A DNA stretch of 54,482 bases from Anaerolineae bacterium (lineage in GTDB: Bacteria; Chloroflexota; Anaerolineae; J102), in the NCBI GenBank assembly GCA_027002405.1, contig JALWZT010000212.1:1-54482 (forward strand), given 5' to 3'. This document shows positions 7,991 through 34,184 of the stretch, piece after piece. The translations under genes were made by a program, and so were the position numbers. A model generated the notes under the pieces. The model was given only the letters and a program-made list of their open reading frames with translations, did no database searches and was not told the origin of the DNA. Every line of letters starts with the position of its first letter. Within the stretch, counting starts at the first letter, position 1.

Positions 7991-8017
7991 CACGCATACC
8001 CACATCCTACATGGATC

Positions 8018-8212: not shown

Positions 8213-8228
8213 GTCGCTCCTATTCAGG

Positions 8229-8373: not shown

Positions 8374-8375
8374 AT

Positions 8376-9212
8376 TCATTCAGGCATGGCAAAGACACGT
8401 TCGGGGTGCCCAGGTAGGGAAAGCTCGGGCGCGTCGTATTCCTTGAGCGCGCCACTTTCCAGGTAAACACTGACCTTCCCCAACAAGACATTCAAATAGC
8501 GCACCACCCCTGGCCCGTCGGGCGTCAGCACCTTTTGCCCGACCTTGGGCAGATGTTTACGCGCGGCCAGGTACATGTCGTTTTCATAGGCCAGGCTGCA
8601 CATCAGCCGACCACACACGCCCGAGATATCGGCCGAGCTCAGAGGGATATTCTGATTTTTGGCCATCCGAATCGAGACGGAATGAAACTCTCGTAAAAAC
8701 GTTCTGCAACACAACCGCCGTCCGCAACGCCCGTAATCCCCCACGATCCTCGCCTGATCCCGGACGCCGATCTGACGCATCTCGATGCGGGTGCTGAAAT
8801 GCCGGGCCAAATCCCGCACCAGGGCTCGGAAATCCACCCGTTTCTCTGCCACGAATTCCACAGTCAAGCGCTCTCCATTGTAGCTGTACGAACAGCGTAC
8901 CACGCGCATATTGAGGCCATGCTCATTGGCTTTTTGCTGACATACAGGCATGGCCGCTTGGGCTTGCTTTTCCCAGTAGACCTTCTGGTCCAAATCGTAC
9001 TTGCTAGCCCGGCGCAAGATTCTCTTCAGCGGGCCTTCCAGCTCATCTTCGGCCAATTCCCTGGCGGGCACCACCACCTGGGCCAATTCCTTGCCGCGAG
9101 CCGTCTCGACCAGAACCCATTCCCCGGGCAACAAATCCGTGTAAGGGCCTGGATCGAAATCATAAAGTTTTGTAACAGGCTGAAATTGAACACTGACAGC
9201 TTGGGGCATCAC
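8376..9212 (-). CDS. ricT: PSP1-domain protein (RicT/YaaT-like)
   Basis: 278 aa with the Cys cluster YGRCGRRLCCRTFLREF. It lies immediately downstream of holB, as in the Bacillus holB-yaaT arrangement. Confidence 0.85.
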   Translation of the reverse strand: MMPQAVSVQFQPVTKLYDFDPGPYTDLLPGEWVLVETARGKELAQVVVPARELAEDELEGPLKRILRRASKYDLDQKVYWEKQAQAAMPVCQQKANEHGLNMRVVRCSYSYNGERLTVEFVAEKRVDFRALVRDLARHFSTRIEMRQIGVRDQARIVGDYGRCGRRLCCRTFLREFHSVSIRMAKNQNIPLSSADISGVCGRLMCSLAYENDMYLAARKHLPKVGQKVLTPDGPGVVRYLNVLLGKVSVYLESGALKEYDAPELSLPGHPERVFAMPE

Positions 9213-9220
9213 ATTCCTCG

Positions 9221-10210: not shown

Positions 10211-10416
10211 AACCTGATGGTACGCGTTCCCTGCGGCTTTGTCAACTCCTGAGCCCAGAGATGAGGTGCCCCAACTTGTTGGCAGGCACTCGTCGAGCCA
10301 GCGCTCCGGGACGGGCGGGGGAGAAAATAAAGATGCATATGGGGGTGGAAATGGAAGCATATGATGGGATCATTGACAACCGATGATGGATATGATAAAA
10401 ATCTAACCAATTGCTT

Positions 10417-11769
10417 ATGAGACAACACCGATCCCAGACCCTGCTCCTTTTTATCCTCCTTCTGGCCCGGTTGATGATCAATAAATTCGCGGAAGCCGGG
10501 CTGTTCGAGCACTTCCAGAATGTGGTCAAGCATCCTTTGGTGGGAGGGTGGCTTCCCGCGCAGGCCGTGGAAGCCTTTGGACCATGGTACGGCGACCCCA
10601 TCTTCCTTCTGCTGGCTGCTATCAGCCTGCTGGCCTTCCTAGGCTATGTCTTTATCGGCCTTTTCCAAGATAAGTTGGGAGAGCGGGCCACGTTTCGGAG
10701 CCAATACATCCTGATCTGGGTGATGATCCTGGCCCTGGTCATCCTCCCTTCCCTCAAACTGGCCTTGCTACGGCATGATAACCTGCCTCATTCATACAGT
10801 CATGATGGGGGTGTTATCCAAACCGAAATCGCCATCGACTATGCCCTTTCGGGCGAAAACCCTTATCACGAAGACTACATCCACACCCCCATGGCCGAAT
10901 GGGGTTTTCCCCAATTTCGCACCGCCCTGACCCATTACCCCTATCTGCCTGCCACCTTCTTGCTTTCTGCGCCCGTCAAATGGCTTTCCGACGTCCTTTT
11001 GGGATGGTATGACCAACGGTTTACTTATCTACTGCTTTTTCTCCTCACCCTCTTGCTGCTTCCAGGGCTCACGCACCGTGCCCCAGACCGAACTTTGGGG
11101 TTGACCATGGTCATCGGGCTGAATCCCATCATGGGCCTGGATATCATCTTCGGCCAGAACGATAGCTTTGTCCTGGCCTGGCTGGTGGTTGGCGCCTGGT
11201 TCTTGCAAAAACACCGATGGGGATGGGGAAGCCTCTTCATGGGGATTGCCGCGGCATCGAAACCCACGGCCTGGTTTATGATCCCCTTTTTCCTCCTCCT
11301 GGCTGCTGAAGATTCCCCCCTGGCATGGCGCACCCTTCTGCAAAAAACGACCCTGGTCAAAATCGCCCGCCGGGCCATTCCCGCGCTGGGGGTCTTCCTC
11401 CTGCTCGTTATCCCTTACCTCTTGTGGTCTCCGCAGGATTTCATCGACGATGTCTGGCGCTGGGCCGCGGGCACGGCCCAGGTCCACTATCAGATATGGG
11501 GCCTGGGCTTTGCCAACTTCGTCCTGGCCACGGGCACCTTGCCCGACCGTTTTGCGTATTGGCCCTTTTGGATCCCCGAACTCCTGGTCTCCGTGCCCGC
11601 CCTCGCGATCCTGGCATGGCAACAGATGCGGCGCAACACCCTGGGGAATGCCTTTTGGCTGGGCGCCATCCTGCTTTTCACCTTTGCCTTCTTTTCTCGA
11701 TTTCTGAATGAAAACTATCTGGGCTTTATCCTGGCCCTCATGGCGTTGGGCTACTACCTGGATACATAG
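10417..11769 (+). CDS. polytopic membrane protein, GT-C-fold glycosyltransferase-like (DUF2029/GT87-like)
   Basis: About 450 aa with more than 10 hydrophobic segments (GLNPIMGLDIIFGQNDSFVLAWLVVGAWF...IAAASKPTAWFMIPFFLLL). ATG 10417 follows TTG 10411. The family call is from recall. Confidence 0.55.
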   Translation: MRQHRSQTLLLFILLLARLMINKFAEAGLFEHFQNVVKHPLVGGWLPAQAVEAFGPWYGDPIFLLLAAISLLAFLGYVFIGLFQDKLGERATFRSQYILIWVMILALVILPSLKLALLRHDNLPHSYSHDGGVIQTEIAIDYALSGENPYHEDYIHTPMAEWGFPQFRTALTHYPYLPATFLLSAPVKWLSDVLLGWYDQRFTYLLLFLLTLLLLPGLTHRAPDRTLGLTMVIGLNPIMGLDIIFGQNDSFVLAWLVVGAWFLQKHRWGWGSLFMGIAAASKPTAWFMIPFFLLLAAEDSPLAWRTLLQKTTLVKIARRAIPALGVFLLLVIPYLLWSPQDFIDDVWRWAAGTAQVHYQIWGLGFANFVLATGTLPDRFAYWPFWIPELLVSVPALAILAWQQMRRNTLGNAFWLGAILLFTFAFFSRFLNENYLGFILALMALGYYLDT

Positions 11770-11797
11770 TCATTTCCCCCAACATCTATACACAACC

Positions 11798-12178
11798 TGT
11801 GGATAACTATGGGGAAAACCTGGATATAACCTTGTCTAAACCCTTGGGAAAAGTCAACATGCTCTGGGGATGATGCCAGGAAAAGTTGCGGAAAAACGAG
11901 GGCATGAGAAATCTCTGTCAAGTCAGACGATATGCCGCCATATAGTCCCCCCGCCAAAACGAGCCACTAAATAGCTCATGGCCTGTTTCTGCCCGGATTC
12001 CTGCTTCAAATCCTCGTCGATACAGGCCAAATAATCCCCAATTTCTTATAAACATATCCACATAAGTTTTCCCCAAAGGCGTGCTGCTATGCAACGGCTA
12101 TTTTGTAGGGATCGTCATCGATGCCCCCTACATATGCATCCCTCTCATCATCTATACGCTTTTTTCCACAAATCCACA
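11798..12178. promoter_or_regulatory. cluster of DnaA-box-like 9-mers in a 445-bp gene-free gap
   Basis: There is a perfect TTATCCACA on the minus strand (tgtggataa, 11798-11806). Near matches are ATATCCACA (12054-12062), TTTTCCACA (12162-12170) and AAATCCACA (12170-12178). An AT-rich stretch spans 12028-12070. Confidence 0.4.
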
Positions 12179-12214
12179 GCGCCTACGACGATAACGAGAT
12201 ACATTTTATCCTGA

Positions 12215-13075
12215 CTATATTTTCTCAACTCTATCCAGCACACGCCCCCTTTCATAGACACCCCAAGCCAACAGCGCCATCAGCAAACTCACCCCCAATA
12301 ACACAGGCGGATGGAAAATTACCCCCGAAACAAGTCCTGCGATGAGAAAATATCCGTGAAAGACTGCAGGGGTCCAACGTACCAAAGGCGATGCGGGCCT
12401 GCGAGATAATCGTGGGCGTTGCGCCATAACCAGGCCCAGAGCCGTGAACAGGGTCACGCCAATCGTCCAGCCATACCAGGCACGGGGAACGACAAAGACA
12501 ATAAACGCGTTGGTAGCCAGAACCCCCAGGACCCCCAAAATGACCGCAGTCACAGGCCCCAGCCAACGGCTCAGGGGATGCGGCTTTTGTGCAAATAACC
12601 ACATCCCGGCAGTGAAGGAACATACCACCCAAAACCAGGCCCAAAAATTTGCCCAGGGCACACCAAAGTATTGAAACGCCATCCCCTGTCCCCAATCCCA
12701 CATCCCTAATCGGATAGCGATGGCATCCATCGACAGGTCGATATTTAACGCCAACAAGCCCGCGGCCACGGGCCAGGCCCAACGAGGCAATGTGGTGGCC
12801 TCCACATACTGACGTGCAGCATAAATGATCACCCCCCAGCCCACACCGATGGCGAGGGGTACCTCGTCCGCGATCATGACCGCAAACCGTCCATATCGAT
12901 ACGCGTGCAATTGTTGAATGGTTGCCCATTCTAGCAGCACCCCAAAAATAACGCCGGCCAACACCTGCCAGACACCATGCCAGCCTTGTCGGTGGTGGAC
13001 GTCCCATAGATTCCACACCAGCAGGCCATACATCAACCCTTCGAATATCAGGAAATAGGGATGGATGTTACCCAT
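12215..13075 (-). CDS. DUF422/CruF-like 'carotenoid biosynthesis protein' family membrane protein
   Basis: Start at ATG 13075 (MGNIHPYFLIFEG); position 13093 is a TTG. The motif LSMDAIAIRLGMWDWGQGMAFQYFGVPWANFWAWF matches my recollection of Pfam Caroten_synth. Confidence 0.5.
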   Translation of the reverse strand: MGNIHPYFLIFEGLMYGLLVWNLWDVHHRQGWHGVWQVLAGVIFGVLLEWATIQQLHAYRYGRFAVMIADEVPLAIGVGWGVIIYAARQYVEATTLPRWAWPVAAGLLALNIDLSMDAIAIRLGMWDWGQGMAFQYFGVPWANFWAWFWVVCSFTAGMWLFAQKPHPLSRWLGPVTAVILGVLGVLATNAFIVFVVPRAWYGWTIGVTLFTALGLVMAQRPRLSRRPASPLVRWTPAVFHGYFLIAGLVSGVIFHPPVLLGVSLLMALLAWGVYERGRVLDRVEKI

Positions 13076-13679
13076 GGCTTTTGCGTTGCACAATCCACCC
13101 TGCCAGGAAGAGTGAGGCCAGGACCGCGGAAAAGAGAATGCCCGAATAGATGACCGGTAAAATGGGGCTGGTGGATTCTCCGATGGGATTTGCAGGATGG
13201 CGGATAAGCGAGGTGCTTCGCACCAGGAAAAGCAGCAGAAACGCGAATACGATAATCGCCACCGCGGTGAAGCGGGGTTGGTTCACCCACCAGATAATGA
13301 CCAGGAAAATGACGCCCACAGCCAGCACCCGAAGGGTCATTTGCGTTCGGGGTTCATGAAAATCCACGAAAACTCCCCAGGCCAATCGGGCCGGGATCAT
13401 GGAAAGCACGAATCCCAAAGCCCATAGAAGAAAAGCGATAAGGCCCACTGTCACCATCCAGGGATAGAGCTTCACATTGCCCAGAAGAAACCCGGCAGCC
13501 AACAGGGCCGCGGCCAAAAAGACGTAAACCGCGGCCTGAGTCAAAGAACCATGGGCGAAGACCCAGCGGATAAGGGTCCCCAGGGTGCGCTCGGGCGGGG
13601 TGAGGAAGATGAAAACAAGCCACAAAAAGCCGAACCCCAGCGCCAGGGGCAAGTATGGGAATGAGCGTCTTCCATGCAT
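13068..13679 (-). CDS. hypothetical integral membrane protein (about 6 TM)
   Basis: 203 aa, strongly hydrophobic. It is translationally packed between the mqn gene and the DUF422 gene. No family was recognised. Confidence 0.6.
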   Translation of the reverse strand: MHGRRSFPYLPLALGFGFLWLVFIFLTPPERTLGTLIRWVFAHGSLTQAAVYVFLAAALLAAGFLLGNVKLYPWMVTVGLIAFLLWALGFVLSMIPARLAWGVFVDFHEPRTQMTLRVLAVGVIFLVIIWWVNQPRFTAVAIIVFAFLLLFLVRSTSLIRHPANPIGESTSPILPVIYSGILFSAVLASLFLAGWIVQRKSHG

Positions 13680-13686
13680 GGTCGTG

Positions 13687-14883
13687 TTAGTTCAACTCGA
13701 TCCTGGTGACCTTTAATTGCCCGCGGCGGGTTTTGCGGCTGGGCGGCGCGTAGGCTTCCAGGGGGTGATCGTAGATTTCGATGATGTTATAGAGGGTGTC
13801 CCGTTCCACGGGCACTTTGCCCGCGGCTTTGATCAGGCGGAGAAGATCGAATTTATCCAGATATTCTTCGGTGGTGGCTCCGGCATCATGATAGATTTTC
13901 TCCTCCACCACGGTGCCGTCGATATCGTCTGCGCCGAAATGGAGGGAAAGCTGGGCAATCGGCGGGGTGAGCATGACCCAATAGGCCTTGATGTGCGGGA
14001 AGTTATCCAGTAACAGCCGACTAACCGCCATGGTTTTTAGGGTATCGTGGGCGCTGGTCCAGTCGAGCTGGCGGCCCAGGTTGTTGTTTTCAGGGTGATA
14101 GCGCAGGGGGATGAAGGTCTGGAACCCGCCCGTCTCATCCTGAAGCTCCCGCAATCGCAGCAAATGGTCCACGCGATGTTCGTACTGTTCGATGTGCCCG
14201 TAGAGCATGGTGGCGTTGGTGCGCAGGCCCAGCCGATGCGCGGTGCGATGGACCGCCAGCCAGGTTTCGGCGTCGGCCTTTTCGGGGCAGATGCGGCGAC
14301 GGATGTCAGGGTGGAAGATCTCGGCGCCGCCGCCGGGCATGGACCCCAGGCCCGCGTCTATCAGCCTGCGTAAGATGGTCTCATGGTCCAGGCCCGTCAT
14401 CTGGCTGAAGAAATCGATCTCCACCGCGGTAAAGGCTTTGAGATGGATGTGAGGGTATTCCCGCTTTAATGCCCGCAGCACCTCTTCGTAGTATTCAAAC
14501 CCCAGTTGGGGATGGAGTCCGCCCACGATGTGAAATTCGGTGACGCGAGGATGCACATCCCCGCGGATGCGGTCGAGAATCTGTTCGGGCGTCCAGGTGT
14601 AGGCGCCGGGGGCGTCATCGCTATGCCGGGCAAAGGAACAGAAGTTGCAGTGGAACGCACAGACGTTGGTGGGGTTGATGTGGCGGTTCTGATTGAAATA
14701 AACGTACTTGCCGCCGTTGATCCGTCGGTTGACCAGATCGGCCAATTGGCCGATGGTGAGCAGATCATAGCTTTGGAACAGGCGCATGCCATCGTCGAAA
14801 TCCAGGCGTTCGCCCGCGACGGTCTTTTCGACGATATCGTCCAGTTCGTGGGTGTGGGAGAGGGAAGTGAGGGTATCGAGCAT
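13687..14883 (-). CDS. mqnE: radical-SAM menaquinone (futalosine pathway) enzyme, MqnE/MqnC family, most like aminofutalosine synthase
   Basis: 398 aa with the radical-SAM CxxxCxxC motif in YFNQNRHINPTNVCAFHCNFCSFAR, plus VTEFHIVGGLHP and KAFTAVEI. The choice of MqnE over MqnC is from recall. Confidence 0.75.
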   Translation of the reverse strand: MLDTLTSLSHTHELDDIVEKTVAGERLDFDDGMRLFQSYDLLTIGQLADLVNRRINGGKYVYFNQNRHINPTNVCAFHCNFCSFARHSDDAPGAYTWTPEQILDRIRGDVHPRVTEFHIVGGLHPQLGFEYYEEVLRALKREYPHIHLKAFTAVEIDFFSQMTGLDHETILRRLIDAGLGSMPGGGAEIFHPDIRRRICPEKADAETWLAVHRTAHRLGLRTNATMLYGHIEQYEHRVDHLLRLRELQDETGGFQTFIPLRYHPENNNLGRQLDWTSAHDTLKTMAVSRLLLDNFPHIKAYWVMLTPPIAQLSLHFGADDIDGTVVEEKIYHDAGATTEEYLDKFDLLRLIKAAGKVPVERDTLYNIIEIYDHPLEAYAPPSRKTRRGQLKVTRIELN

Positions 14884-15301
14884 GAGGGAAGGGGTATTGG
14901 ATATTGGATACTGCTATGTAAATAGGATTCGGATCAGGATTAGGATTGAGGATCGCCAGGTCCACGTTGAGCGAGGCACCAACGGGCGTGATGCGTGAAA
15001 TGTAAAACGTGAGAGCCTTACGCATCACGCATTACGCATCACGTGCTCGGCTTCCCGCGCCAACGTGGCCGCGAGATGTTTTCATCCGTATCGGCGAGCT
15101 GCCGTTCGGGGTGACTGCTTTGTAGATAGAGTAATCAGTGATCAGTTATCAGTAATCAGTAGGAATCTGCGTTGCATCTGCGTTACATCTGCGCAGATCA
15201 GCGTTCTATTTTCATCGTTAGAGGGTGAGCTATAGTTCAGGGCGACTGGATACTGGATATTGGATACCAAATATCGAATACCCAATCCCCAATATCGCAT
15301 T
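14884..15301. repeat. modular intergenic repeat locus R1 (archetype; modules F, terminus, A, B/C, linker, D, E, F)
   Basis: F GGTATTGGATATTGGATAC 14893-14910. Terminus ctgctatgtaaatag 14911-14925. A hexamers AGGATT/CGGATC 14924-14951. B/C palindrome 14952-15078. Linker ttttcatccgtatcggcgagc...gactgctttgtagatag 15079-15129. D heptamers NATCAGT x4 15133-15160. E ATCTGCG 11-mers 15163-15206. F palindrome 15246-15297. Confidence 0.9.
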
Positions 15302-16642
15302 TTACCAGAAAGCTGGCCAAACCAGGAGAACGAGAACACTTAATCCCACACTGGCGGAAAGCGCTAGCACAGCAAGAACGCGGGGTGCAGTCCGAAGCTC
15401 ACGCGTGATGGGAAGCGCATCGAATCCGCCCGCCAAGCCCATACCAAACCACACACCGATGGCCGCGATGCTGGGCCACAACAGGCGGGCTTGGTCCGTG
15501 CCCAGGGCCAGCCGGGTGTAGTTGATAATGCCCGCCAGAGTGAGCAAAGGTGCACCTGCCAACAGGAGCAACAAGAAAACCTGGCAAGATCCCTCGCGCC
15601 ACCACCCCCGCAGGAGGTGAATAACGCCCATCAGCACGGCCAATGAGAAAACGCCCGCCAGCGCATAAGCCCAATGAGGGAGAAATATCTGGCCGATGGC
15701 GCCATAGCGTCCCCAGAAGTACGTGTACAGCCCTTTGGCCAACCATAGCAGCACTCCCAAGTCTATCGGGCCTTCCCGCACGTCTATGGTCTGGCGCACC
15801 AAGGCCCAGCCCAAAGGATCGCCATACAGTTGCCAGTTGCGCACCAGCCAGGGCGAAGCCACCAGCAGGCCCAAGCCCCAGGCCAGTGCCCCATGCCCTA
15901 CTACCTCCAACCAGGCCCGAGCCTGATCGCGGCGAGGCCAGAGATATGCGGCCAGGGGAAGCGCCAACAACGGCCACAGAGAAAAGGTCCCCACCTTGGA
16001 AAGCGCGCCCAGGCCGAAAATGACGCCCAGAGCCAAAGTGTATCGCCAGGACAGCGATTGCTGAATCATCCTCACCATGATCAAGATAGCCAGGGCCCCA
16101 AACGCGCCTGCTGCATTGTCATTGTTTATGGCCCCGCTGATGTACAAAAAGCCAGGCAGGCCCGCCAGAAACGCGGCAGCCATCAAGCCCACATCCTGAC
16201 GCTGCGGAAAGGATTCTTGCCCTATGCGCCAGGTGGCCCACAGGGTGATGCCACCCAACACCACCGAAAGAAAGCGCACCAGGTGGAAAGCCAGGGGACC
16301 TTCTCGCCAGGGGAAGGCCTCGGCATCGCCGTGGATGAAGAAATTGGCCGGGCCATCGGTGCGAATGGGGAACACATCGGGGTTGGGCTGCAGAAAGAGC
16401 CCCATGCCTGTCCATCCCCCCACCAAGGCTGCCATCCCATGATAGAGCGGAGGGTGCTTGCCCTGGGTGATCTCCGGCCCCTGGGGCAAATGCCGATGCC
16501 GGGCCAGGTAGCGGGCGTAGGCGTAGTGATCAGCCTCATCGGGCGCCTCCCCCAGGGGCACGATCACGGACACAGCCGTGGCCAGCACCAGGTAGACTGC
16601 CAGGATGATGAGAAAAAAACGGGGCTGCTTTGAAAATAGCAT
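15302..16642 (-). CDS. GT-C-fold membrane glycosyltransferase (ArnT/PMT_2-like)
   Basis: 446 aa, polytopic. The first periplasmic loop is PLGEAPDEADHYAYARYL, the acidic motif typical of ArnT/PMT-type GT-C enzymes. Its ATG and first 6 codons (MLFSKQ) lie inside the repeat terminus 16625-16642. Confidence 0.65.
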   Translation of the reverse strand: MLFSKQPRFFLIILAVYLVLATAVSVIVPLGEAPDEADHYAYARYLARHRHLPQGPEITQGKHPPLYHGMAALVGGWTGMGLFLQPNPDVFPIRTDGPANFFIHGDAEAFPWREGPLAFHLVRFLSVVLGGITLWATWRIGQESFPQRQDVGLMAAAFLAGLPGFLYISGAINNDNAAGAFGALAILIMVRMIQQSLSWRYTLALGVIFGLGALSKVGTFSLWPLLALPLAAYLWPRRDQARAWLEVVGHGALAWGLGLLVASPWLVRNWQLYGDPLGWALVRQTIDVREGPIDLGVLLWLAKGLYTYFWGRYGAIGQIFLPHWAYALAGVFSLAVLMGVIHLLRGWWREGSCQVFLLLLLAGAPLLTLAGIINYTRLALGTDQARLLWPSIAAIGVWFGMGLAGGFDALPITRELRTAPRVLAVLALSASVGLSVLVLLVWPAFW

Positions 16643-16971
16643 GATCGTCGGTTGCGGAAGGATCGCCAGGCCTACGTTGAGCGAGACGACAACGGGCGTG
16701 ATGCGTGAAAACGTGAAACGTGAGAACCTTACGCATCACGCATTACGCATTACGTGCTTGGCTTCCCGCGCCAACTTGGCCGCGAGATGTTTTCCTCGGT
16801 ATCGACGCGGGCGAGCCCGCCGTTGGACTGCTTTGAAAATAGAGGACGCAGATGAACGCTGATAGAGGCAGATTCACGCAGACAAAAAATCAAAATAAAA
16901 ATCATCTGCGCAAATCAGCGTTGCGAAGCATCTGTGCAAATCTGCGTTCCCTTTTCATCCGTATCGGTGAG
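16625..16971. repeat. modular intergenic repeat locus R2 (terminus, B/C, linker, E-type inverted array, linker)
   Basis: ctgctttgaaaatag 16625-16639. ggatcgccaggcctacgttgagcgag...cgtgaaaacgtgaaacgtgag/cttacgcatcacgcattacgcat...ccaacttggccgcgagatg. Linker 16790-16842. gcagatgaacgctgat ... atcagcgttgcgaagcatctg arrays run to 16950. The final linker runs into the stop of the next gene. Confidence 0.9.
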
Positions 16972-19830
16972 CTATCGCTCAGGGTGACTGATCACTGATG
17001 ATGTTTTTGGCAACAGGGGCAATGGAGTCAATTCCAAAGCGTCATCGAAGACAGGAAGCTCGCTGGTCACATGGAGACGTGCGCCTGTGTGGGGATCATA
17101 CATGCCCACGCGTAAGTCGTATCGACCTGGGGGAAGGTTGGAAGGAATAGAGAGGATGTGGACATCGCGAATGTATTCCTGGGGGAACCAGATGTCGGTG
17201 GGGAGTTGTCCTTGTGCGGGGATGCCGTCGTGCTGCGCGACAATGCGCCCCTCTGCATCGAGGAGATGAACAAAAACTTTGTACGAGATGTCGTCAGGGG
17301 CTTGCGCTCGCCAGAGGAGCTCGAGGGTGAGGGGCTGTCCGGGAACGCCCTTTTCGGGATGAAGCGCATACCCGGCCAACTCGGCAATGCTTCCTATCTG
17401 AGCTGAAACTGGTATGAAATCCGCAGGTGGGGACCAGAGATGTGGACGATCTTGGACGGTCAATGTTCCTATAGGGAATGGAAGAGGCGCTGGATGGTCC
17501 TCGAAAATCAAGCGAAGATCGACCAGGTAGCGGTGATCTCCCAGGGTAATGGGGGCCCGGACGTTATGCTGGGTATGAATGATAGCACCAGGCTTGAGTA
17601 ACTCAAAGGTGGAGGGGGTCATGAGCGGCTGATCTGGAGGCCGGGTGTGGCGAATGGCTTTCCCTCGGAATCGTATTCGTATGGAGGGGACACGGTGAAG
17701 GGGGCGTCGCACCTGCCAGTAGGTATCTACCCTTATGGGGTCACCCGGCCGAACTGGGCCCGGAGAAACGGCCCAGGCTTTTAGGGCCAGGGGGCCCATG
17801 CGAGGGGCAATAGGCGGAACAAAGCTCGGGGCAAGGTAGGCCCGGCGGAAGGTTGAGGTGGTCTCGACATGCACCTGGCCTAAGGGGATGGGATCGTATC
17901 TGGGAAAGCGATACAATTGGTCATCGTCCGAAAAATAGAACATGAGCAGCTCGGCTTGATAGTCGCCGGGCAGGGCTCCCAGCGGGAGCTGCAAGGGGAT
18001 AGCGGTCAAGCCTTCGGTGCCCTGAGGGATGACATCGCCAGGGTACCATTGAGAGGCCAGTAATGCATGAAATTCAATGGGGGGCTGATGCGGTTCTGGA
18101 GATGTGAGTCGGATGCCCAGGAAGGTGCGCTTGGGCAAGGCATCTTGGGCGTGCCAACAGACCGAAAGGGAAAGGGTTTCATAGGGGGGCAGGGTTCGGG
18201 GGAGTTGTCCAATCCCCAAGGCAATGGGGCCGTAAGACGCGAGGGGCAAGTCTAAGGTCTGGGAGCAGGAAAGTGTTTGTCCTTTGGGAAGCACACGCAC
18301 AAGATGTCCCCAGGGAATGAAGGCGTAATCCTCCGGCCACGAGGACATCTGGGATGGAGGAAGAGGCGCTGCTACATAAAGGGGAAGGCCGTGCTCCAGC
18401 CAGGGATCGATAACAGCTTTTGGGGCGGGAGGGAATAATCCCCACAGGTCCGTGCGCAGGTTTTGGATATGTTGCAGGTACCACAGGGGGGTGAAGTCAC
18501 TCCAGTTTCCCAATAACCCCGCCTGTTCTTCGATGGGCTGGGCCAGGATGGCTTCCCAGCCAGCGCGGATGTCGATTCGGCGACTGAAGTCCCGCTGGTC
18601 CCAGTTGGAGGTGAGTAGGATCAGGAACACGCTGAGCGCAAACACGCCTTGCAGAGCCCGTACGGTTCTTGTTTGCCTCGCTCCCGATGCAAGGCTGCTT
18701 GGGAGCAGGGGTGCGAAGGCAGCAAAGAAGGCGATAATGCCAAAGACGGGCATCAGATAGGCATCGTTTTTTCCCTGCCGGATGTAAGCGACCATGAGCG
18801 TGAGGAATAAGGCAAACCCAAAAATCAGAAGTGTAAACAAGGGCTCTCTGCGGAGAAGATAGATAAATCCTATGCCCGCCATGACCAGCAACCACCAGGG
18901 GGCATCCTGCTGGAAGAAGGGGATCAGGCCCGGCAAATTATGGACGGCCTGAATCCACCCACCCCCAAGGAATTGCCAGATATAGCCCTGCAACCCGGCG
19001 ATGTAATGGAAAATCAAAGCCCCATCACCATGGGGCACATACCAGACGTGAACCAGCCCCTTGTAGACGGCTGCGGAACGAGCAATCCCAGGCAATAGCG
19101 GCCAGGATGAAAAGGTTTTCCAGCGCCATGGCACGTAGAGATAGAACACCAGCGGAAGTCCCAAGGGGATCAGCCACCAAAGGGCGCGGCGGAGGCGTTG
19201 GTGGCCATGCGCCCCCGTGCCCGAAACCATCAGAATGAACCAAAAGGGGGCCATCAACGCGGCCGTGGGATGCAGCGTGAGGCTGATGCCCAACATGCCG
19301 CCAGCCAGGGCCAGGCGCCATCGCTTTTGGGACCATGAGGCGAAGCGTCGGGCCTCCCAGGCTGCCCACCAGGCTCCGATCATGAGGGCCAGGTTGAGCG
19401 TGTAGCGTTCGGCCACGATGCTGAATTGCCAAAAGGTGGGCATCAGGGCCAAGATCATGCCCGCAAGAAAGGCAGAGGTATGGTTGCGGGTCATGCGCCA
19501 AACCAGCGCGGCCAGGATCCCCGCGGCCAGAGCCCCAGCCAGGGCCGAGAGCAGGTTCATCTCCCATGCCGGCTCCCCCAGGGGGAGTTTTTGCCATAGC
19601 CAGCCCAACAGCATGTACGCAGGGAAGCCGTTGGGATGGGGGAGGCCCAGCAAAGAGGGGAGATATTGAAATTCAGCGAAATCCGAGACGAAAACGTCCG
19701 GGGCCAGGGTGCGCCAATAAATCAAAAAGGTGGAGCATGTTACGATCCCAGGGGTGATCCAGCCCTGGCGCCGCAATTTTTCGAAGGTCAAGGGATCGTT
19801 CATTGGGGGATGATGCTCTGCTGGACTCAA
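16972..19830 (-). CDS. DUF2723/TMEM260-like GT-C membrane glycosyltransferase with a large C-terminal repeat-domain region
   Basis: 952 aa. The N-terminus TLAPDVFVSDFAEFQYLPSLLGLPHPNGFPAYMLLGWLW is DUF2723-like. The C-terminal part carries about 3 copies of a ~100-aa module ending YKVFVHLLDAEGRIVAQHDGIPAQGQLPTDIWFPQEYIRD...LPPGRYDLRVGMYD. Confidence 0.7.
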   Translation of the reverse strand: MSPAEHHPPMNDPLTFEKLRRQGWITPGIVTCSTFLIYWRTLAPDVFVSDFAEFQYLPSLLGLPHPNGFPAYMLLGWLWQKLPLGEPAWEMNLLSALAGALAAGILAALVWRMTRNHTSAFLAGMILALMPTFWQFSIVAERYTLNLALMIGAWWAAWEARRFASWSQKRWRLALAGGMLGISLTLHPTAALMAPFWFILMVSGTGAHGHQRLRRALWWLIPLGLPLVFYLYVPWRWKTFSSWPLLPGIARSAAVYKGLVHVWYVPHGDGALIFHYIAGLQGYIWQFLGGGWIQAVHNLPGLIPFFQQDAPWWLLVMAGIGFIYLLRREPLFTLLIFGFALFLTLMVAYIRQGKNDAYLMPVFGIIAFFAAFAPLLPSSLASGARQTRTVRALQGVFALSVFLILLTSNWDQRDFSRRIDIRAGWEAILAQPIEEQAGLLGNWSDFTPLWYLQHIQNLRTDLWGLFPPAPKAVIDPWLEHGLPLYVAAPLPPSQMSSWPEDYAFIPWGHLVRVLPKGQTLSCSQTLDLPLASYGPIALGIGQLPRTLPPYETLSLSVCWHAQDALPKRTFLGIRLTSPEPHQPPIEFHALLASQWYPGDVIPQGTEGLTAIPLQLPLGALPGDYQAELLMFYFSDDDQLYRFPRYDPIPLGQVHVETTSTFRRAYLAPSFVPPIAPRMGPLALKAWAVSPGPVRPGDPIRVDTYWQVRRPLHRVPSIRIRFRGKAIRHTRPPDQPLMTPSTFELLKPGAIIHTQHNVRAPITLGDHRYLVDLRLIFEDHPAPLPFPIGTLTVQDRPHLWSPPADFIPVSAQIGSIAELAGYALHPEKGVPGQPLTLELLWRAQAPDDISYKVFVHLLDAEGRIVAQHDGIPAQGQLPTDIWFPQEYIRDVHILSIPSNLPPGRYDLRVGMYDPHTGARLHVTSELPVFDDALELTPLPLLPKTSSVISHPER

Positions 19831-19857: not shown

Positions 19858-19945
19858 GTCATCAGTAATCAGTCATCCGTCGGAATCAGCGTTGCGAAGC
19901 ATCTGTGTAAATCTGCGTTCCCATTTTTGTTCGCATTGGTAAGCC
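19858..19945. repeat. modular intergenic repeat locus R3 (short: D remnant, E, linker)
   Basis: gtcatcagtaatcagtcatccgtcggaatcagcgttgcgaagcatctgtgtaaatctgcgttcccatttttgttcgcattggtaagccgtt. It matches the E-plus-linker part of R2 (16915-16965). Confidence 0.8.
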
Positions 19946-22206: not shown

Positions 22207-22619
22207 CTGCTTTGAAAATAGCATGATCGTCGGTTGCGGAAGGATCGCCAGGCCGACGTTGGGCGAGTCGGCAAAGGTTCGTATTGCGTATTCCGTATTC
22301 CGTCCAGTCGTTACGCAATACGCAATACGGAATACGAGTCACGCCGCCCTGGCCGCGAGGCATTTTCGTCGGTATCGGCGCGGGCGAGCCAGCCGTTGGA
22401 CTGCTATGAAAATAGGATTCGGAGCAGGATTAGGATCAGGATTAGGATCGTCAGGCCCACGTTGGGCGAGGCTGCAACGGGCGTGATGCGTGAAACGTGA
22501 AACGTGAGAATCTTACGCATTACGGCATCACGCATCACGTTTTACGGTCCGTCAGCCTGGCTGCGAGGCGTTTTCATTCGTATCGGTAAACCGCCGCTTG
22601 TGTGGCCTGCTTCGCAACC
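22207..22619. repeat. modular intergenic repeat locus R4 (two scaffold units with different cores)
   Basis: Terminus 22207-22221. Scaffold ggatcgccaggccgacgttgggcgag 22242-22267, with core cgtattgcgtattccgtattccg / cgcaatacgcaatacggaatacg (22280-22336). Linker 22363-22415. Hexamers 22414-22449. The second scaffold carries the cgtgaaacgtgaaacgtgag-type core (22450-22570). Confidence 0.9.
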
Positions 22620-24319: not shown

Positions 24320-24739
24320 TTATCCACGTTCCTCGAACCAGGCGCGGCATTGATGCAAGAGATTCTCGGCGGCGCGCAATGCCCGTTGTGCATCTTCGTC
24401 CGTGAAAATCTGCCCGGGCGTCAGGTCCGGCAGACCGTTTGGGTAGCGGGTGGGCACGTAAAATTGATCCAGGAGCCCAGCGTCTCTCATCCATCGATCC
24501 GAATCAGGAAGCTCGTCACGATAAGGGAAATCTTGCAGCAGTTTGAGAATGGAGTGTCCCCATGGATCGATATCTTCCAGATACCAGATGGCCTTGACTG
24601 CTTTTTCGCCACATTGTTCAGCATGAAAGCAGGCCGCGGCGAAGAGACCTTCCGCTGCCAGAACTCGGGCGGCTTGCAAGTCCTCGTGTGCTGTTGTCAG
24701 CCAGCGTTCAGCCTGCCAACGGTTCTTTTGCTGACTCAT
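24320..24739 (-). CDS. HEPN-domain protein (toxin of an MNT/HEPN type VII TA pair)
   Basis: 139 aa. AERWLTTAHEDLQAARVLAAEGLFAAACFHAEQCGEKAVKA ... VPTRYP is a HEPN-like helical bundle. It lies immediately downstream of the MNT gene and overlaps it. Confidence 0.8.
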   Translation of the reverse strand: MSQQKNRWQAERWLTTAHEDLQAARVLAAEGLFAAACFHAEQCGEKAVKAIWYLEDIDPWGHSILKLLQDFPYRDELPDSDRWMRDAGLLDQFYVPTRYPNGLPDLTPGQIFTDEDAQRALRAAENLLHQCRAWFEERG

Positions 24740-26753: not shown

Positions 26754-27035
26754 CTGCTTTGTAAATAGAGTAATCAGTGATCAGTTATCAGTAATCAGTA
26801 GAGCCTCGCGACGTCATTCCGAGGGAGCGAAGCGACCGAGGCATGTCCTGAGCGCAGCCGAAGGAAATCTAGCGAAGCGCAAGAACCACCGCATGGCGCT
26901 CGCTTCGTTCGCTAGATGCTTCGCTCCCTCCGGTCGCTCAGCATGACGAATATCTGCGAAAATCTGCACTGCGAAGCATCTGCGAAAATCTGCGTCCTCA
27001 TTTTCATCGGTATCAGCGAGCCATGGATCGTGGCG
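26754..27035. repeat. modular intergenic repeat locus R5 (terminus, D, third core type, E, linker)
   Basis: ctgctttgtaaatag 26754-26768. NATCAGT x4 26772-26799. The core palindrome is gtcattccgagggagcgaagcgaccgagg ... tctagcgaagcg/cgcttcgttcgctaga ... gcttcgctccctccggtcgctcagcatgac (26811-26947). ATCTGCG arrays 26952-26996. Linker ttttcatcggtatcagcgagc follows. Confidence 0.85.
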
Positions 27036-27040
27036 CCCGC

Positions 27041-27481
27041 TCAGATTTCGCGCTCATCCTCTTCATCCATAAGAAAGAAGATGCCCGCAAAGAAAATGAT
27101 GAGAAAGGCGGTGAGGGCCATGAAAGGAATGGTGATGAACCCTGCCAGGTTCACCCAGGTGGTGGTACAGGGGATGCCTGTGTCGCAGACCGCGCTGTGG
27201 GAAAAGAGAGGGGTTTTCTGGAGCAGATAATGGTAACTGGATACCAGTGTTCCCAGGATGGTGAAGGGCAAGACATAATGGAAAACACCCTGGTCTCTAC
27301 GTAGCAGCCCGATAAGCAGGATGAGCGCGAGGGGATACATGAGTATCCGTTGGTACCAGCACAGGCTACACGGGATAAAATGGAGTCCTTCGCTTAAATA
27401 AAGACTGCCCAGGGTGGCTGCCCAGGCTGCTGCCAGGGCGATCAGGATGGCGATGGTGCGGTGTGTGGAGAAACGGTGAAT
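27041..27481 (-). CDS. DsbB/BdbC-family disulfide bond formation protein; probable non-canonical ATT (or ATC) start
   Basis: The ATG ORF (27041..27340) starts at ...MYPLALILL. The in-frame upstream sequence reads IHRFSTHRTIAILIALAAAWAATLGSLYLSEGLHFIPCSLCWYQRIL, with no ATG, GTG or TTG back to the in-frame TGA. That stretch carries TM1 and the CxxC, and aligns with the Bacillus BdbC N-terminus as I recall it. AGGAGG (27488-27493) lies 6 nt upstream of ATT (27479-27481). Confidence 0.6.
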   Translation of the reverse strand: MHRFSTHRTIAILIALAAAWAATLGSLYLSEGLHFIPCSLCWYQRILMYPLALILLIGLLRRDQGVFHYVLPFTILGTLVSSYHYLLQKTPLFSHSAVCDTGIPCTTTWVNLAGFITIPFMALTAFLIIFFAGIFFLMDEEDEREI

Positions 27482-27491
27482 GATGGGCCTC

Positions 27492-27715
27492 CTGCTTTGT
27501 AAATAGGATTCGGATCAGGATTAGGATCGGGATTAGGATTCGGATTGAAGATCGTCAGGACTACGTTGGGCTGGAGAGCAACGGGCGTGATGCGTGAAAC
27601 GTGAAACGTGAGAACCTTACGCATCACGCATTACGCATCCCGGGCTCGGCTTCCCGCGCCAGCCTGGCCGCGAGGTGTTTTCCTCTGTATCGACGAACAG
27701 GCGTTCGTGGCAAAA
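27492..27715. repeat. modular intergenic repeat locus R6 (terminus, A, B/C, linker)
   Basis: ctgctttgtaaatag 27492-27506. Hexamers 27505-27547. Then gatcgtcaggactacgttgggctggagagcaacgggcgtgatgcgtgaaacgtgaaacgtgagaaccttacgcatcacgcattacgcat...ccagcctggccgcgaggtgttttcctctgtatcgacg. Confidence 0.9.
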
Positions 27716-27717
27716 GT

Positions 27718-32356: not shown

Positions 32357-32525
32357 CTGCTATGTAAATAGGATTCGGATCAGGATTAGGATTGAGGTCG
32401 TCAGGCCGACGTTGAGCGAGGCGACAACGGGCGTGATGCGTGAAACATGAAACGTGAGAACCTCACGCATCACGCATTACGCATTACGTTTCGCGGCTCA
32501 CCAACCTGGCTGCGAGGCGTTGTTA
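32357..32525. repeat. modular intergenic repeat locus R8 (terminus, A, B/C)
   Basis: ctgctatgtaaatag 32357-32371 starts 1 nt after the maf stop. Hexamers 32370-32398. Then gtcgtcaggccgacgttgagcgaggcgacaacgggcgtgatgcgtgaaacatgaaacgtgagaacctcacgcatcacgcattacgcattacg...ccaacctggctgcgaggcg. Confidence 0.9.
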
Positions 32526-32572
32526 TTGGGGGTGAAAATTTGAAAAAAATTCATCTTTTTTCCAAAAAGGGG

Positions 32573-32601
32573 TTGTCAAATGGTGTTTTTTCTGCTACAA
32601 T
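32573..32601 (+). promoter_or_regulatory. candidate strong sigma-70-type promoter (extended -10)
   Basis: TTGTCA (32573-32578), a 17-nt spacer, then TGC-TACAAT (TACAAT 32596-32601). An A/T-rich UP-like tract lies upstream (gaaaatttgaaaaaaattcatcttttttccaaaaagg). Confidence 0.45.
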
Positions 32602-33608: not shown

Positions 33609-33812
33609 AGTTTCACGTGAAACGGGCGCCGCGCACGGCAGCTCGCCGATGCCGAGGAAAAGGGAACGCAGATTTGCGCAGGTGCGACGCAGATTTCCAC
33701 TGATTACTGATCGCTGATCACTGATTACTCGTGCTTGCGCCAAACCTCGACCTGACAATCCTCAATCCTAATCCTAATCCTAATCCTAATCCTGATCCTA
33801 TTTACGGAAAAG
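33609..33812. repeat. modular intergenic repeat locus R9 (inverted orientation: linker, E, D, A, terminus)
   Basis: gtttcacgtgaaac palindrome. gctcgccgatgccgaggaaaagg. gaacgcagatttgcgcaggtgcgacgcagatttcc. ACTGATN x4 33699-33729. CCTAAT-type hexamers 33757-33797. ctatttacggaaaag 33798-33812. Confidence 0.85.
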
Positions 33813-33898
33813 AAACCTTTTTGCCTTTTTTGTCATCCTAAACGCAAGGCAGTGTTAAAGCCAAGGTTTGTAGCTATGCGCGTTCCCTCTCATGATAA

Positions 33899-34045
33899 GG
33901 CAAAAACCACGAGGGCACGACAACACGAAAGCACGAAGAGAAAAGTGGCAGATGAAAAACGCCGTCGCTAGAAGGACTTGCCGCTTGCGACTTGCAAACC
34001 TGTATTGTCTTCGTTTCTTCGAGCCTTCGTGGCAGAACGTTTTGT
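33899..34045. repeat. H-type long imperfect palindrome (copy H3) in the rpoD upstream region
   Basis: ggcaaaaaccacgagggcacgacaacacgaaagcacgaagagaaaag ... gtcttcgtttcttcgagccttcgtggcagaacgttttg. Confidence 0.7.
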
Positions 34046-34184
34046 AGAATGCCTGTATAGTGGCGTCTGAAAATGCCTTTGGCTTAGAACCGAAAATGCC
34101 AGTGTTCAGAAACGGGACCTGATTTTTAGATGGTTCCTAAGGGGGCTGTACCCCCAAAAACTCGAGACTCAAAATATGTGAAAT

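Follow-up and report, generated by a model that had tools for sequence, protein, structure and literature searches.

The stretch of DNA considered here (the window) is the complete 54,482-nt contig JALWZT010000212.1 of an Anaerolineae bacterium. Its 40 open reading frames, compared with Pfam, belong to housekeeping families or have no match, together with proteins carrying HEPN and PIN domains. The feature under study is one member of a non-coding, hairpin-shaped repeat family of about 200 nt that is dense in the intergenic gaps of a thermophilic Chloroflexota bacterium, a member of the Anaerolineae that probably belongs to the Caldilineales. It forms a complete unit on the forward strand (unit 1, 22207-22403), composed of a cap, a linker, a scaffold hairpin of type B, a tail and a terminal CTG held in common with the next cap. 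The cap module, CTGCTTTGAAAATAG (22207-22221), contains a TGAAAAT complementary to the ATTTTCA of the tail, and the linker is a degenerate half-copy of the left scaffold frame. This frame, GGATCGCCAGGCCGACGTTGGGCGAG (22242-22267), was located by frame scan and alignment. The left arm of the core (22280-22303) consists of the heptamers CGTATTG, CGTATTC and CGTATTC and a final CGT; the right arm (22313-22336) reads ACG followed by CAATACG, CAATACG and GAATACG. The right scaffold frame, GGCCGCGAGGCATTTTCGTCGGTATCGG, spans 22351-22378, with the tail motif starting at 22363, and is followed by a small tail hairpin of version iii (GCGGGC..GCCAGCC) and GTTGGA (22379-22400). Unit 2 stands in tandem on the same strand (22401-22609) and comprises a cap, an (AGGATT)n array, a type A scaffold hairpin, a tail and CTG, after which a cap-like CTTCG is found.

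Further scaffold units, all with a type A core, lie at 14911-15117, at 16625-16830 (with the linker CATGATCGTCGGTTGCGGA) and at 27492-27716 on the forward strand. Another, with a truncated tail, is located just 3' of the maf stop codon and before a promoter-like site (32357-32530, forward), and one has the opposite orientation (45872-46107, reverse). In other forward-strand units the same cap and tail surround different interiors: an AGTAATC array with an ATCTGCG array that does not form a hairpin (15115-15248), a CGCAGAT/ATCTGCG hairpin (16828-16990; DNA fold z = -3.5), and again the AGTAATC plus ATCTGCG type, here carrying the nested element R5 (26754-27040). A chimeric unit on the reverse strand (33612-33815) joins a cap-like segment, an AGGATT array and the left frame to AGTAATC and ATCTGCG arrays and a tail, and is the one copy in which the left frame was seen joined to non-palindromic sequence. 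Five of seven window units share the same orientation relative to transcription, which could hint at function.

The initial annotation of this locus described a conserved outer frame enclosing unrelated, interchangeable palindromic cores. The outer frame is real, with seven copies in the window and none expected from shuffles. The left frame, GGATCGCCAGGCCNACGTTGRGCGAG, occurs six times with at most 3 mismatches, against 0.00 expected in shuffles, and a looser regular-expression scan of the window added a seventh copy at 27548. The frames thus lie at 14949, 16659, 22241, 22444, 27548 and 32394 on the forward strand and at 45900-46052 on the reverse strand. A right frame, GGCYGCGAGRNNTTTTC..GTATCG, follows each left frame in the window 100-125 nt downstream; the literal right-frame string first proposed has no matches because its spacing was written too rigidly, and a regular expression was used instead. 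The cap has 11 matches in the 54 kb of the window, where 0.68 are expected.

This scaffold lies inside a larger unit made of a cap (CTGCTWTGWAAATAG), a hairpin and a tail, where it forms the outer stem of one of the interior types. A full unit of about 200 nt (130-300 nt across the family) starts with the cap, YTG-CTWTGWAAATAG, and a simple array or linker, continues with a long, imperfect hairpin that has arms built of tandem heptamers, and ends with the tail, TTTTCATCSGTATCGG, a small covarying hairpin and GNCGC-CTG. Since the TGAAAAT of the cap pairs with the ATTTTCA of the tail, the whole unit can fold as a single hairpin. Besides the scaffold hairpin, at least five unrelated interiors are found between one and the same cap and tail; the interior types are the scaffold hairpin, CACGGAT/ATCCGTG, GGTAGAC.., CACGAAG+GACTAAA+ATCTGCG, CGCAGAT/ATCTGCG and AGTAATC+ATCTGCG. 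The idea of unrelated interiors in a common frame holds at the larger scale of cap and tail but fails within the scaffold. Interiors of 118, 125, 132 and 146 nt differ solely in the number of GACTAAA units, as in slippage. Three versions of the tail hairpin recombine with caps, linkers, arrays and scaffolds into a mosaic of recurrent modules.

Unit boundaries are sharp, and clusters run head to tail in a single orientation. Every unit is preceded by YTG, and CTG stands at both ends of units and clusters, an arrangement that a 3-bp duplication, an unduplicated target or a common recombination core could each produce. In 36 of 54 tails a cap follows directly on the 3' side; among the 18 cap-less cases, CTWTG follows the terminal CTG in four (3% background). 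An 8-base recombination core, CTGCTWTG, was considered and found only partial support: the cluster at 14911 is flanked by CTG and GATAC, so that only CTG is constant. Terminal inverted repeats were not found, as the left end CTGCTWTG does not match the reverse complement of the right end (CAGGCGNC); the sole inverted pair near the ends is the subterminal TGAAAAT/ATTTTCA. At the right end, a covarying hairpin lies 6 nt before the terminal CTG; at its pair 19-28, 35 tails have A-T, 12 have C-G and four have C.T. A left-end hairpin was looked for in the units and none was found. Where tail and cap meet, the junction forms a dyad, ATTTTCAT ... ATGAAAAT.

Both cores named at the outset could be located, each with complementary arms. 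Core B, cgtattgcgtattccgtattccg / cgcaatacgcaatacggaatacg, occupies 22280-22336 with arms that are 88-94% complementary, and among the seven window frames the CGTATTG/CGTATTC core is confined to the copy at 22241-22385. Core A, cgtgatgcgtgaaacgtgaaacgtgag / cttacgcatcacgcattacgcatcacg (CGTGATG/CGTGAAA), is present in the other six, with arms that are 70-84% complementary. Local scores of arm complementarity are 12-17, compared with 5 +/- 1.3 in shuffles. A rate of about one mismatch per unit, as first described, applies to core B, whereas in core A each heptamer has about two positions without Watson-Crick pairing. The two cores are diverged versions of one hairpin and homologous throughout, contrary to the description of unrelated cores. 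All cores are arrays of CGTNNNN heptamers with intermediate subtypes and a common loop, TCGTTACGCA, and their gap-free identity to one another is 63-75% (z = 6.9-9.3 against shuffles). Core B and the CGTAATC subtype (the A2 core) align without gaps at 75% identity (z = 9.3), and between these two each left unit carries the same A>T change and each right unit its complement, T>A, a change that is both concerted and compensatory. The left arm of B pairs best with its own right arm (17.3, against 11.3 with the right arm of A1), and the left arm of A1 with the right arm of B scores 6.9. Two alignment pairs (44-110 and 67-95) have changed from A-U to U-A in the 6 sequences of type B. That arm and anti-arm change together is supported; the bulk of the covariation traces to a single inherited event, the B subfamily. 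Covariation was assessed by mapping the minimum-energy fold of one sequence onto the alignment, in addition to arm comparisons for each element. RNAalifold on a MAFFT alignment gave a nearly empty consensus structure because shifts of the heptamer register misalign the arms.

A copy-and-diversify mechanism had also been suggested. A dedicated generator, similar to a diversity-generating retroelement or to cassette exchange, would swap unrelated palindromic cores into a fixed scaffold; it could account for an architecture that is kept while the sequence changes and for the unrelated interiors between cap and tail. However, the cores are homologous and linked by intermediate subtypes, their differences are not adenine-specific, and the window is devoid of reverse transcriptase and integrase. 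Moreover, R5 is a separate nested element, and the units are dispersed rather than gathered in one array beside a recombinase. The gap-free identity of the B and A2 cores already largely refutes such a generator, which is regarded as extremely unlikely. What holds of the proposal that structure is conserved without sequence is the hairpin architecture, with arms that change together; no dedicated diversifying machine was seen, and the data call for no more than heptamer slippage combined with selection or with correction of one arm by the other.

Given the regular heptamer period, in which conserved CGT/ACG positions recur, the arrays could also be read as protein-binding sites, with heptamers as the recognition units of nucleoid-associated, gyrase/IHF-like or repeat-reading proteins. 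BIMEs bind IHF and gyrase, and the dyad at the tail-cap junction would suit such a role. Yet at least six unrelated heptamer types occur in one frame, which would require many different proteins, the heptamer sequences drift and get replaced, and no candidate protein was identified. This explanation is considered very unlikely.

The element R5, to which the initial annotation assigned a third core (26811-26947), proved to be of another nature. It is an independent palindromic element at 26800-26948 on the forward strand (GTCATTCCGAGGGAGCGAAGC ... GCTTCGCTCCCTCCGG..CATGAC), inserted into the unit that starts at 26754. It lies outside the frame, with an AGTAATC array on one side and an ATCTGCG array on the other, and is not itself built of heptamers. 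Its absence from the otherwise near-identical unit at 15113-15248 identifies it as a nested insertion, and a 31-nt piece of it recurs at 52928-52958. R5 is thus a repeat of independent origin that came to lie at this place. Nesting is found elsewhere too: a GTAAC..GTTAC element with an 8-bp duplication is nested in the loops of CGCAGAT units, and the cluster at 14911-15248 sits at a CTG within a GGATATT/CCAATAT hairpin.

With redundant copies removed, the window and the metagenome-assembled genomes JALXCB01 (whose contigs are those of metagenome Ga0256832) and DRQW01 together yielded at least about 53 scaffold units and 35 further units with cap and tail, among the matches listed. Scaffold units are known from three Anaerolineae/Caldilineales-like genome lineages, again among the matches listed. 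In the genome scan with a degenerate left frame, most listed matches were chance hits in coding DNA of unrelated phyla, and real ones came only from JALXCB01 and DRQW01 loci; L009, L014, L021, L029, L032, L038 and L039 were inspected and rejected as chance. The viral contigs searched contained no frame match, and their single tail match was a chance hit in AT-rich DNA. One contig, L001, terminates in a unit. A literature search found no paper joining Anaerolineae with intergenic hairpin repeats.

Related genomes differ in the presence of units. In relatives whose UbiA is 86-92% identical, the order CofH-UbiA-PTPS_related-PMT_2-CofH is kept, the gaps measure -4 to 85 nt and units are absent, whereas the window carries 2, 2 and 2 units at the corresponding gaps. 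Likewise, a unit present in L099 is missing from the corresponding place in L072, its 78-85% identical counterpart. The empty site of L130 reads CAAAG-AG, compared with CGAAGCAG and CAAAGCAG flanking the window insert, and the intergenic flanks of L130 are themselves diverged. A perfectly clean empty site was not found in a closely related genome, the flanks of L072 being diverged as well. Sequence conservation varies widely among copies. The A-type units inside the window have a mean identity of 79% to one another. Unit 1, with its B core, is 97.2% identical to L076 and 95.8% identical to L056 over 177-190 nt. A further comparison gives 99.3% identity between the window's B unit and L056, against 72-74% identity in coding DNA between the window and L056 or L100. 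Judging from these identities, the B copy of the window is probably a very recent arrival of a subfamily that dominates another genome lineage; a near-identical copy across genomes (99.3%) could in principle also reflect chimeric metagenome assembly of repeats. At the other extreme, an old orthologous copy (L091 versus L124) is far more diverged than the flanking genes, which indicates that single loci are not under strong sequence constraint.

These observations bear on whether transposition is needed at all. Arrays and hairpins might be born locally, by slippage and fold-back synthesis, with the frames carried between intergenic regions only through gene conversion or homologous recombination. 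In the relative L133, the same gap downstream of UbiA does hold a plain heptamer array, (GGTCCGA)n, unit-number variation is common, and the chimeric unit demonstrates that recombination between modules does occur. An excess of intergenic heptamer repeats is also known from some bacteria, where such simple repeats are over-represented, possibly through polymerase slippage (PMC4692102). Nevertheless, unique frames of 25-50 nt are found again, with identities of about 80-99%, at dozens of loci that are otherwise unrelated, in three lineages, the units have sharp boundaries, and nested insertions have defined edges. The 99.3% identical copy in genomes with about 73% coding identity is equally difficult to reconcile with local birth, and this explanation is thought distinctly unlikely.

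The units could instead act as functional structured RNA modules, such as bidirectional terminators, insulators, or hairpins for mRNA stabilisation or processing, the hairpin being kept by selection on the RNA; some REP/BIME elements are known to have such roles. The long GC-rich hairpin with GAAAAT on its 5' side and (A)TTTTCAT on its 3' side would suit this function, and both core and tail hairpin carry compensatory changes. From crude ORF calls, there is a mild excess at gene ends (51, versus 34 at gene starts) and of convergent contexts (11, versus 5 divergent). In the window operon all units are antisense to the T-tract orientation, and the unit at 32357, the only one that stands between a gene end and a promoter, has the sense orientation. 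However, orientation between co-directional genes is mixed (14 versus 10), both strands of the units fold about equally well, and the counts of G.U and A.C in the tail hairpin (14 versus 8) reveal no strand preference. The stem is followed only by TTTTC, a tract of four Us, whereas an intrinsic terminator needs a U-tract of at least 5-7 nt, and a consensus terminator scan flagged no unit. Searches against Rfam 15 returned no match at gathering score; one hit was a chance miRNA hairpin (27 bits versus a threshold of 90). No tRNA was found in the units, nor any coding capacity, the open reading frames across them being spurious (e.g., an NPNPDP repeat peptide). In 6 of 7 window units the reverse complement of the cap, CTATTTTCAAAGCAG, precedes a start codon by 4-30 nt. 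A promoter role was nevertheless rejected, as there is no -35 element and the association is lost in other genomes (19 'away', 23 'into'). Since the relatives keep the same operon without units and the old orthologous copy has decayed, an RNA-level function is judged unlikely.

The favoured reading, considered fairly probable, is that of mobile mosaic repeats similar to MITE, REP and BIME elements, with spread, CTG insertion and heptamer turnover as follows. The family would consist of non-coding mosaic intergenic repeats that behave like these elements. Units appear to have been inserted into intergenic gaps, including those of an operon that is compact in relatives, to stack head to tail with a CTG in common, and to nest in the loops and arrays of other such hairpins. 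Copying would take place in trans, by an enzyme that would recognise the conserved ends, cap and tail, and insert the copies at CTG; a plausible candidate is a transposase or recombinase that acts on single strands and recognises hairpins. No transposase, RAYT, recombinase, integrase or reverse transcriptase was found among the 40 window open reading frames compared with Pfam. A tblastn search of 1.07 Mb (about 0.5 Mb of it from the host lineages, a small part of any host genome), with an IS200 TnpA sequence as query, found no IS200-like TnpA, and self-comparison of host loci for repeats of insertion-sequence size returned only orthologous genes and the units themselves. Within the hairpin, the heptamer arrays may turn over by replication slippage, as the observed variation in unit number suggests. 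Variants would then be homogenised along one arm, and the opposite arm would follow through selection for pairing or through template switching between arms. The outcome would be subfamilies A1, A2, A3, A4 and B, which, seen in one window, resemble interchangeable cores.

A more far-reaching version is that the Caldilineales harbour an undescribed mobilisation system, hairpin-recognising and CTG-targeting, that reads the ends while the interior is rebuilt by slippage and arm-to-arm copying. It might be a single-strand HUH-like system or an unrecognised recombinase. If true, this would be a mobile hairpin that diversifies itself and also moves between distant genomes, as the 99.3% identical B copies would suggest, but it is rated a long shot. 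If the reading as mobile mosaic repeats is right, the units take up a few percent of the genome in a thermophilic clade of Chloroflexota that has been little studied, break metagenome assemblies and pad operons that are compact in relatives. They would also show clearly, in nature, how the two arms of a repeat hairpin evolve in concert and with compensation. With their conserved ends, the CTG at their junctions and an end hairpin that covaries, they would be a defined substrate for finding the enzyme that moves them. The excess of heptamer repeats in some bacteria, long without an explanation, would gain a case from outside the cyanobacteria.

The finding alone reveals no new kind of biological system, its kind being the known one of selfish bacterial repeats, and several such systems offer a comparison. 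Like MITEs, the units are small (about 130-300 nt), non-coding, intergenic and of high copy number, with long hairpins, conserved ends around variable interiors, presence/absence polymorphism and nested insertions. Unlike MITEs, they have no inverted repeats at the very termini (the TGAAAAT/ATTTTCA pair is subterminal), no clear target-site duplication was seen beyond the common CTG, no parent insertion sequence was found, and the arms are built of tandem heptamers.

With single-strand transposition, the palindrome-associated elements derived from IS200/IS605 provide a second model. Elements of this type have subterminal hairpins at both ends and insert 3' of a fixed short motif with no duplication. 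They share with the units the lack of terminal inverted repeats and a subterminal right-end hairpin, here 6 nt before CTG. Head-to-tail stacking would follow if the units inserted next to a CTG, the motif with which they also end. In contrast to these elements, no matching left-end hairpin was found in the units, TnpA was not found in the DNA searched, and the cleavage sites of the units are inferred.

REP and REPIN sequences associated with RAYT (a Y1 HUH protein) are palindromes of 20-40 bp with a GTAG or CGTC tag at one end (PMC3733652). The units resemble REP, BIME and REPIN elements as extragenic palindromes that form module mosaics, often in tandem clusters (PMC3733652, PMC3116915, PMC6006769). 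Structure is kept through compensatory change, a small hairpin lies beside a fixed short end motif, and other elements nest in the units much as insertion sequences are reported to target REPs. However, the units are 5-10 times longer than REPs, with a hairpin of about 135 nt, and have no conserved GTAG or CGTC (the loop of the tail hairpin is CGTC in only 4 of 56 tails). The alternating REP orientation of BIMEs is absent from their head-to-tail clusters, and no RAYT gene was found in the DNA examined.

Integron attC sites are likewise imperfect palindromes in which structure rather than sequence is conserved and mismatched bases are kept, but they flank gene cassettes in a single array beside an integrase, while the units are dispersed and cassette-less, with no integrase nearby. 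Diversity-generating retroelements, in which template and variable repeats differ at adenines, are set apart by the paired A>T/T>A changes in both arms of the units and by a window without reverse transcriptase.

Cyanobacterial STRR sequences, which are heptanucleotide tandem repeats, and small dispersed repeats were reportedly described by Mazel in 1990 and Elhai in 2008. Together with the heptamer repeats of Xanthomonas and Nostoc (PMC4692102), they share with the units intergenic heptamer arrays, some of them inverted pairs able to form stem-loops. Their unit number and sequence vary widely between relatives, and small elements nest in such hairpins. The units described here occur in Chloroflexota, and their arrays, rather than being free-standing, are embedded in a cap/tail unit with conserved unique frames.

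The frame described in the initial annotation is mostly real. At ≤3 mismatches, six copies of the left frame, GGATCGCCAGGCCNACGTTGRGCGAG, are present in the window (0.00 expected from shuffles), joined by a seventh, more diverged one at 27548, and in every copy the right frame, GGCYGCGAGRNNTTTTC..GTATCG, lies 100-125 nt downstream. Six window copies are A-type, with a CGTGATG/CGTGAAA core and a CATCACG/CATTACG anti-arm (starts 14949, 16659, 22444, 27548 and 32394 on the plus strand; 45900-46052 on the minus strand), while the sole B-type copy (22241-22385) has CGTATTG/CGTATTC and CAATACG/GAATACG. Arm complementarity scores are 12-17 versus 5 ± 1.3 for shuffled arms. Predicted DNA folds of the whole hairpins reach −28 to −39 kcal/mol (z −1.6 to −4.8) on either strand.

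The cores had been considered unrelated, which was not borne out. All of them are arrays of CGTNNNN heptamers, two to five per arm, in at least five subtypes: A1 (CGTGATG/CGTGAAA), A2 (CGTAATC/CGTAATG), A3 (anti-arm CGTTTCAC), A4 (CGTCATG/CGTCACG) and B (CGTATTG/CGTATTC). A gap-free alignment of core B with an A2 core has 44 identities in 59 positions (z = 9.3 relative to shuffles), and identity to A1 is 63%; the frames around B and A cores are 86-92% identical. From A2 to B, the left arm shows one recurrent A>T per unit (CGTAATC to CGTATTC) and the right arm the complementary T>A (CATTACG to CAATACG), with the position-7 mismatch of A2 kept unaltered. A dedicated machine swapping or diversifying cores would be another source of variable contents; beside this gap-free kinship, we give it next to no credence.

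Compensatory change between the arms is confirmed by cross-pairing scores: 17.3 for B-left with B-right, 11.3 for B-left with A1-right and 6.9 for A1-left with B-right. The arms have co-evolved. In a 55-sequence alignment, 83.5% of the cells of the mapped hairpin are paired, versus 32-53% with slid partners, and compensatory pairs are found at 44-110, 67-95 and 66-96. Most of this compensatory signal is supplied by the B lineage and therefore reflects few independent events. The subfamily cores probably arose by heptamer slippage and homogenization along one arm, the other arm changing to match through pairing selection or arm-to-arm template switching.

Extended outward, the copies reach sharp common edges that place the scaffold inside a larger non-coding unit of about 200 nt. 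The modules of this unit follow a fixed order: first the cap, CTGCTWTGWAAATAG (11 window copies versus 0.7 expected); next a GATTCGGATCAGGATTAGGATT array or the linker CATGATCGTCGGTTGCGGA, in which half of the left frame is repeated in degenerate form; then the scaffold hairpin and the tail, TTTTCATCSGTATCGGCG; and finally a small tail hairpin, GNCGC or GTCGGA, and CTG. Three versions of the small hairpin occur (CGAGC..GCTCG, CGCGC..GCGCG and GCGGGC..GCCCGC), with Watson-Crick pairs in 86% of cells; at pair 19-28, 35 tails have A-T, 12 have C-G and four have C.T. Its G.T versus A.C counts (14 vs 8) gave no strand call. Since the cap TGAAAAT is complementary to the tail ATTTTCA, the entire unit can form a single long hairpin. 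In 36 of 54 tails, the next cap follows directly, with the CTG in common.

Unrelated interiors also occur between this cap and tail (in the window, 15115-15248 and 16828-16990). Some are hairpins, of CACGGAT/ATCCGTG, GGTAGAC/CCGGGAAA-type or CGCAGAT/ATCTGCG; the others are AGTAATC + ATCTGCG and a non-palindromic CACGAAG + (GACTAAA)n + ATCTGCG of 118, 125, 132 or 146 nt, in steps of seven. Thus, the idea of one frame with differing contents applies at the outer, cap/tail level, and is less true of the scaffold for which it was proposed. As a side note, the B-core hairpin (22274-22341) gives a chance, sub-threshold Rfam match to mir-2574 (27 bits versus a gathering score of 90) that automated annotation could falsely pick up.

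The supposed third core, R5 (26811-26947), is instead a separate palindromic element, GTCATTCCGAGGGAGCGAAGC...CATGAC, nested in unit 26752. The first 50 nt of units 15113 and 26752 are alike but for one difference; after AGTAATCAGTAG, unit 26752 has about 148 extra bases (26800-26948), and then picks up at GAAT(AT)CTGCG. A 31-nt piece of R5 recurs at 52928-52958. A GGATATT/CCAATAT heptamer hairpin is interrupted at a CTG by a two-unit cluster (14911-15248), which separates the hairpin halves (GGATATT/GGATACT and CCAATAT-type) at 14893-14910 and 15249-15295. In the loops of three CGCAGAT units, a GTAAC...GTTAC element is nested, with an 8-bp duplication, AAAAAATC, on its flanks.

Other repeats share the window. 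A CACGAAG/CTTCGTG heptamer hairpin lies upstream of rpoD (33830-34100); in other loci (L132 6890-7170, L093, L097 and L033), it forms the body of an element with GTAAC..GTTAC inverted ends, also seen nested with the 8-bp duplication AAAAAATC. A different family surrounds a PIN-domain gene (50250-50365, 51426-51571, 51758-51793 and 52862-52899) and includes a palindrome, CCAGACCTTCAAGGTCTC, and a block, CCCGAYACGAACAACCCGCGGCCACGGGCCGACGCT, which recur in two to three copies at spacings of about 1.1-1.4 kb. Identity between 51792-51981 and L053 4991-5183 is 88.6%. A 52-nt repeat, GGCAAAAAGGTTTTTCAACACGGAGACACGGAGG.CACAGAGAA, found at 8228-8279 and 35886-35937 (92% identical), includes a short CACGGAG-type array.

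The order CofH-UbiA-PTPS_related-PMT_2-CofH is kept in five relatives (L130, L131, L134, L133 and L129; UbiA 86-92% identical), whose intergenic gaps of -4 to 85 nt contain no units. In the window, the same operon carries units in pairs: one pair follows UbiA (22207-22609), another lies around 16625-16990, and a third, accompanied by arrays, is at 14884-15301. At its empty site, L130 has TGA gtttgCAAAGAGggagg...ATG; the occupied site in the window is TGA ggttgCGAAGCAG[units]CAAAGCAG cattcgc ATG. Likewise, a unit present in L099 is missing from L072, its 78-85% identical counterpart, where other sequence stands. Old copies decay: the orthologous unit of L091 and L124 is far more diverged than its coding flanks (~93% identical). 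Local slippage and recombination without transposition is an improbable account of the units. In L133, whose UbiA is 92% identical to that of the window, the UbiA-downstream gap (4040-4127) holds six GGTCMGA heptamers as a plain array without cap, tail or hairpin, so heptamer arrays arise at this site independently of units.

Some neighbouring genes show peculiarities. A 952-aa TMEM260-like O-mannosyltransferase gene (16972-19830) lies between the PTPS_related and PMT_2 genes, which directly overlap in L130. Repeat pieces bracket it (full units at 16625-16990; an AGTAATC/ATCTGCG/tail-like fragment at 19862-19930) and may have mediated its gain or loss. A membrane-protein frame on the minus strand (27041-27487) is open upstream of the listed ATG (27340) to AGGAGGCCC-ATC-ATT, directly after a cap; the upstream stretch has no ATG, GTG or TTG start, pointing to ATC or ATT as start codon, to a frameshift, or to a repeat-disturbed 5' end. 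A promoter-like near-consensus site (32573-32601; TTGTCA and, after 17 nt, TACAAT with a TG before it) is located directly 3' of a truncated scaffold unit, upstream of a methyltransferase gene (32602).

Homologues of the window proteins carry the labels Caldilineales, Anaerolineae or Chloroflexi, and an ENA hot-spring-type metagenome contig (L001), whose end falls inside a repeat, is 99.96% identical to 7866-14964. Among the matches listed, pattern scans yielded about 53 non-redundant scaffold units and genuine frame copies in two further lineages, MAG JALXCB01 (its contigs are those of metagenome Ga0256832) and MAG DRQW01 (HyVt-591). The frame matches inspected in other phyla were chance matches in coding DNA, and viral contigs yielded no unit copies. 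Each of the four scaffold units found in DRQW01 carries a B core, which makes the lone B copy of the window look recently arrived. This unit (22241-22385) shares 99.3% identity with DRQW01 locus L056 (16-160) and 96-98% with L076 and L115; in coding DNA, the window is only 72-74% identical to L056 or L100, and window A-type units average 79% among themselves. The near-identity of the B units indicates either that they spread horizontally in recent times or that metagenome assembly produced an artefact (chimeric repeats).

The units match no Rfam family, no tRNA was found and a consensus terminator scan flags none of them. By crude ORF calls, units between co-directional genes lie 14 in one orientation versus 10 in the other, and convergent contexts (11) exceed divergent ones (5). 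Tolerated selfish repeats typically show such a pattern, which at best weakly favours an RNA role tied to one strand. Structured RNA modules are an unlikely reading of the units, and protein-binding arrays, which the heptamers might also represent, are very improbable. A Pfam scan of 40 window ORFs gave housekeeping families or no match, with no transposase, recombinase or reverse transcriptase, plus HEPN-domain and PIN-domain proteins (24320-24739 and 50711-51250) that look like toxin-antitoxin-type small genes amid housekeeping genes. A tblastn search of 1.07 Mb with an approximate query found no IS200-like TnpA.

The units are probably mosaic hairpin repeats, mobile but non-autonomous, that make up one family: their ends are conserved and their interiors variable, they stack through shared CTGs, nest, differ in presence between related loci, and decay when old. 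We infer their mode of movement. A putative enzyme would recognize the unit ends and the tail hairpin, and the unit would insert at CTG, possibly as single-stranded DNA.

In behaviour, the closest known systems are MITEs and REP/BIME/REPIN elements; in composition, they are the heptamer tandem repeats of cyanobacteria and Xanthomonas (PMC4692102). Unlike MITEs, however, the units have no terminal inverted repeats; compared with REPs (PMC3733652), they lack the GTAG or CGTC tag and are of the wrong size; they do not alternate in orientation as BIMEs do; and they differ from IS200/IS605 derivatives in having no left-end hairpin and no TnpA found. Given this resemblance without the defining features, and with no description of such elements found in the literature on Anaerolineae, we rate the family as a variant, itself new, of a known kind of repeat.
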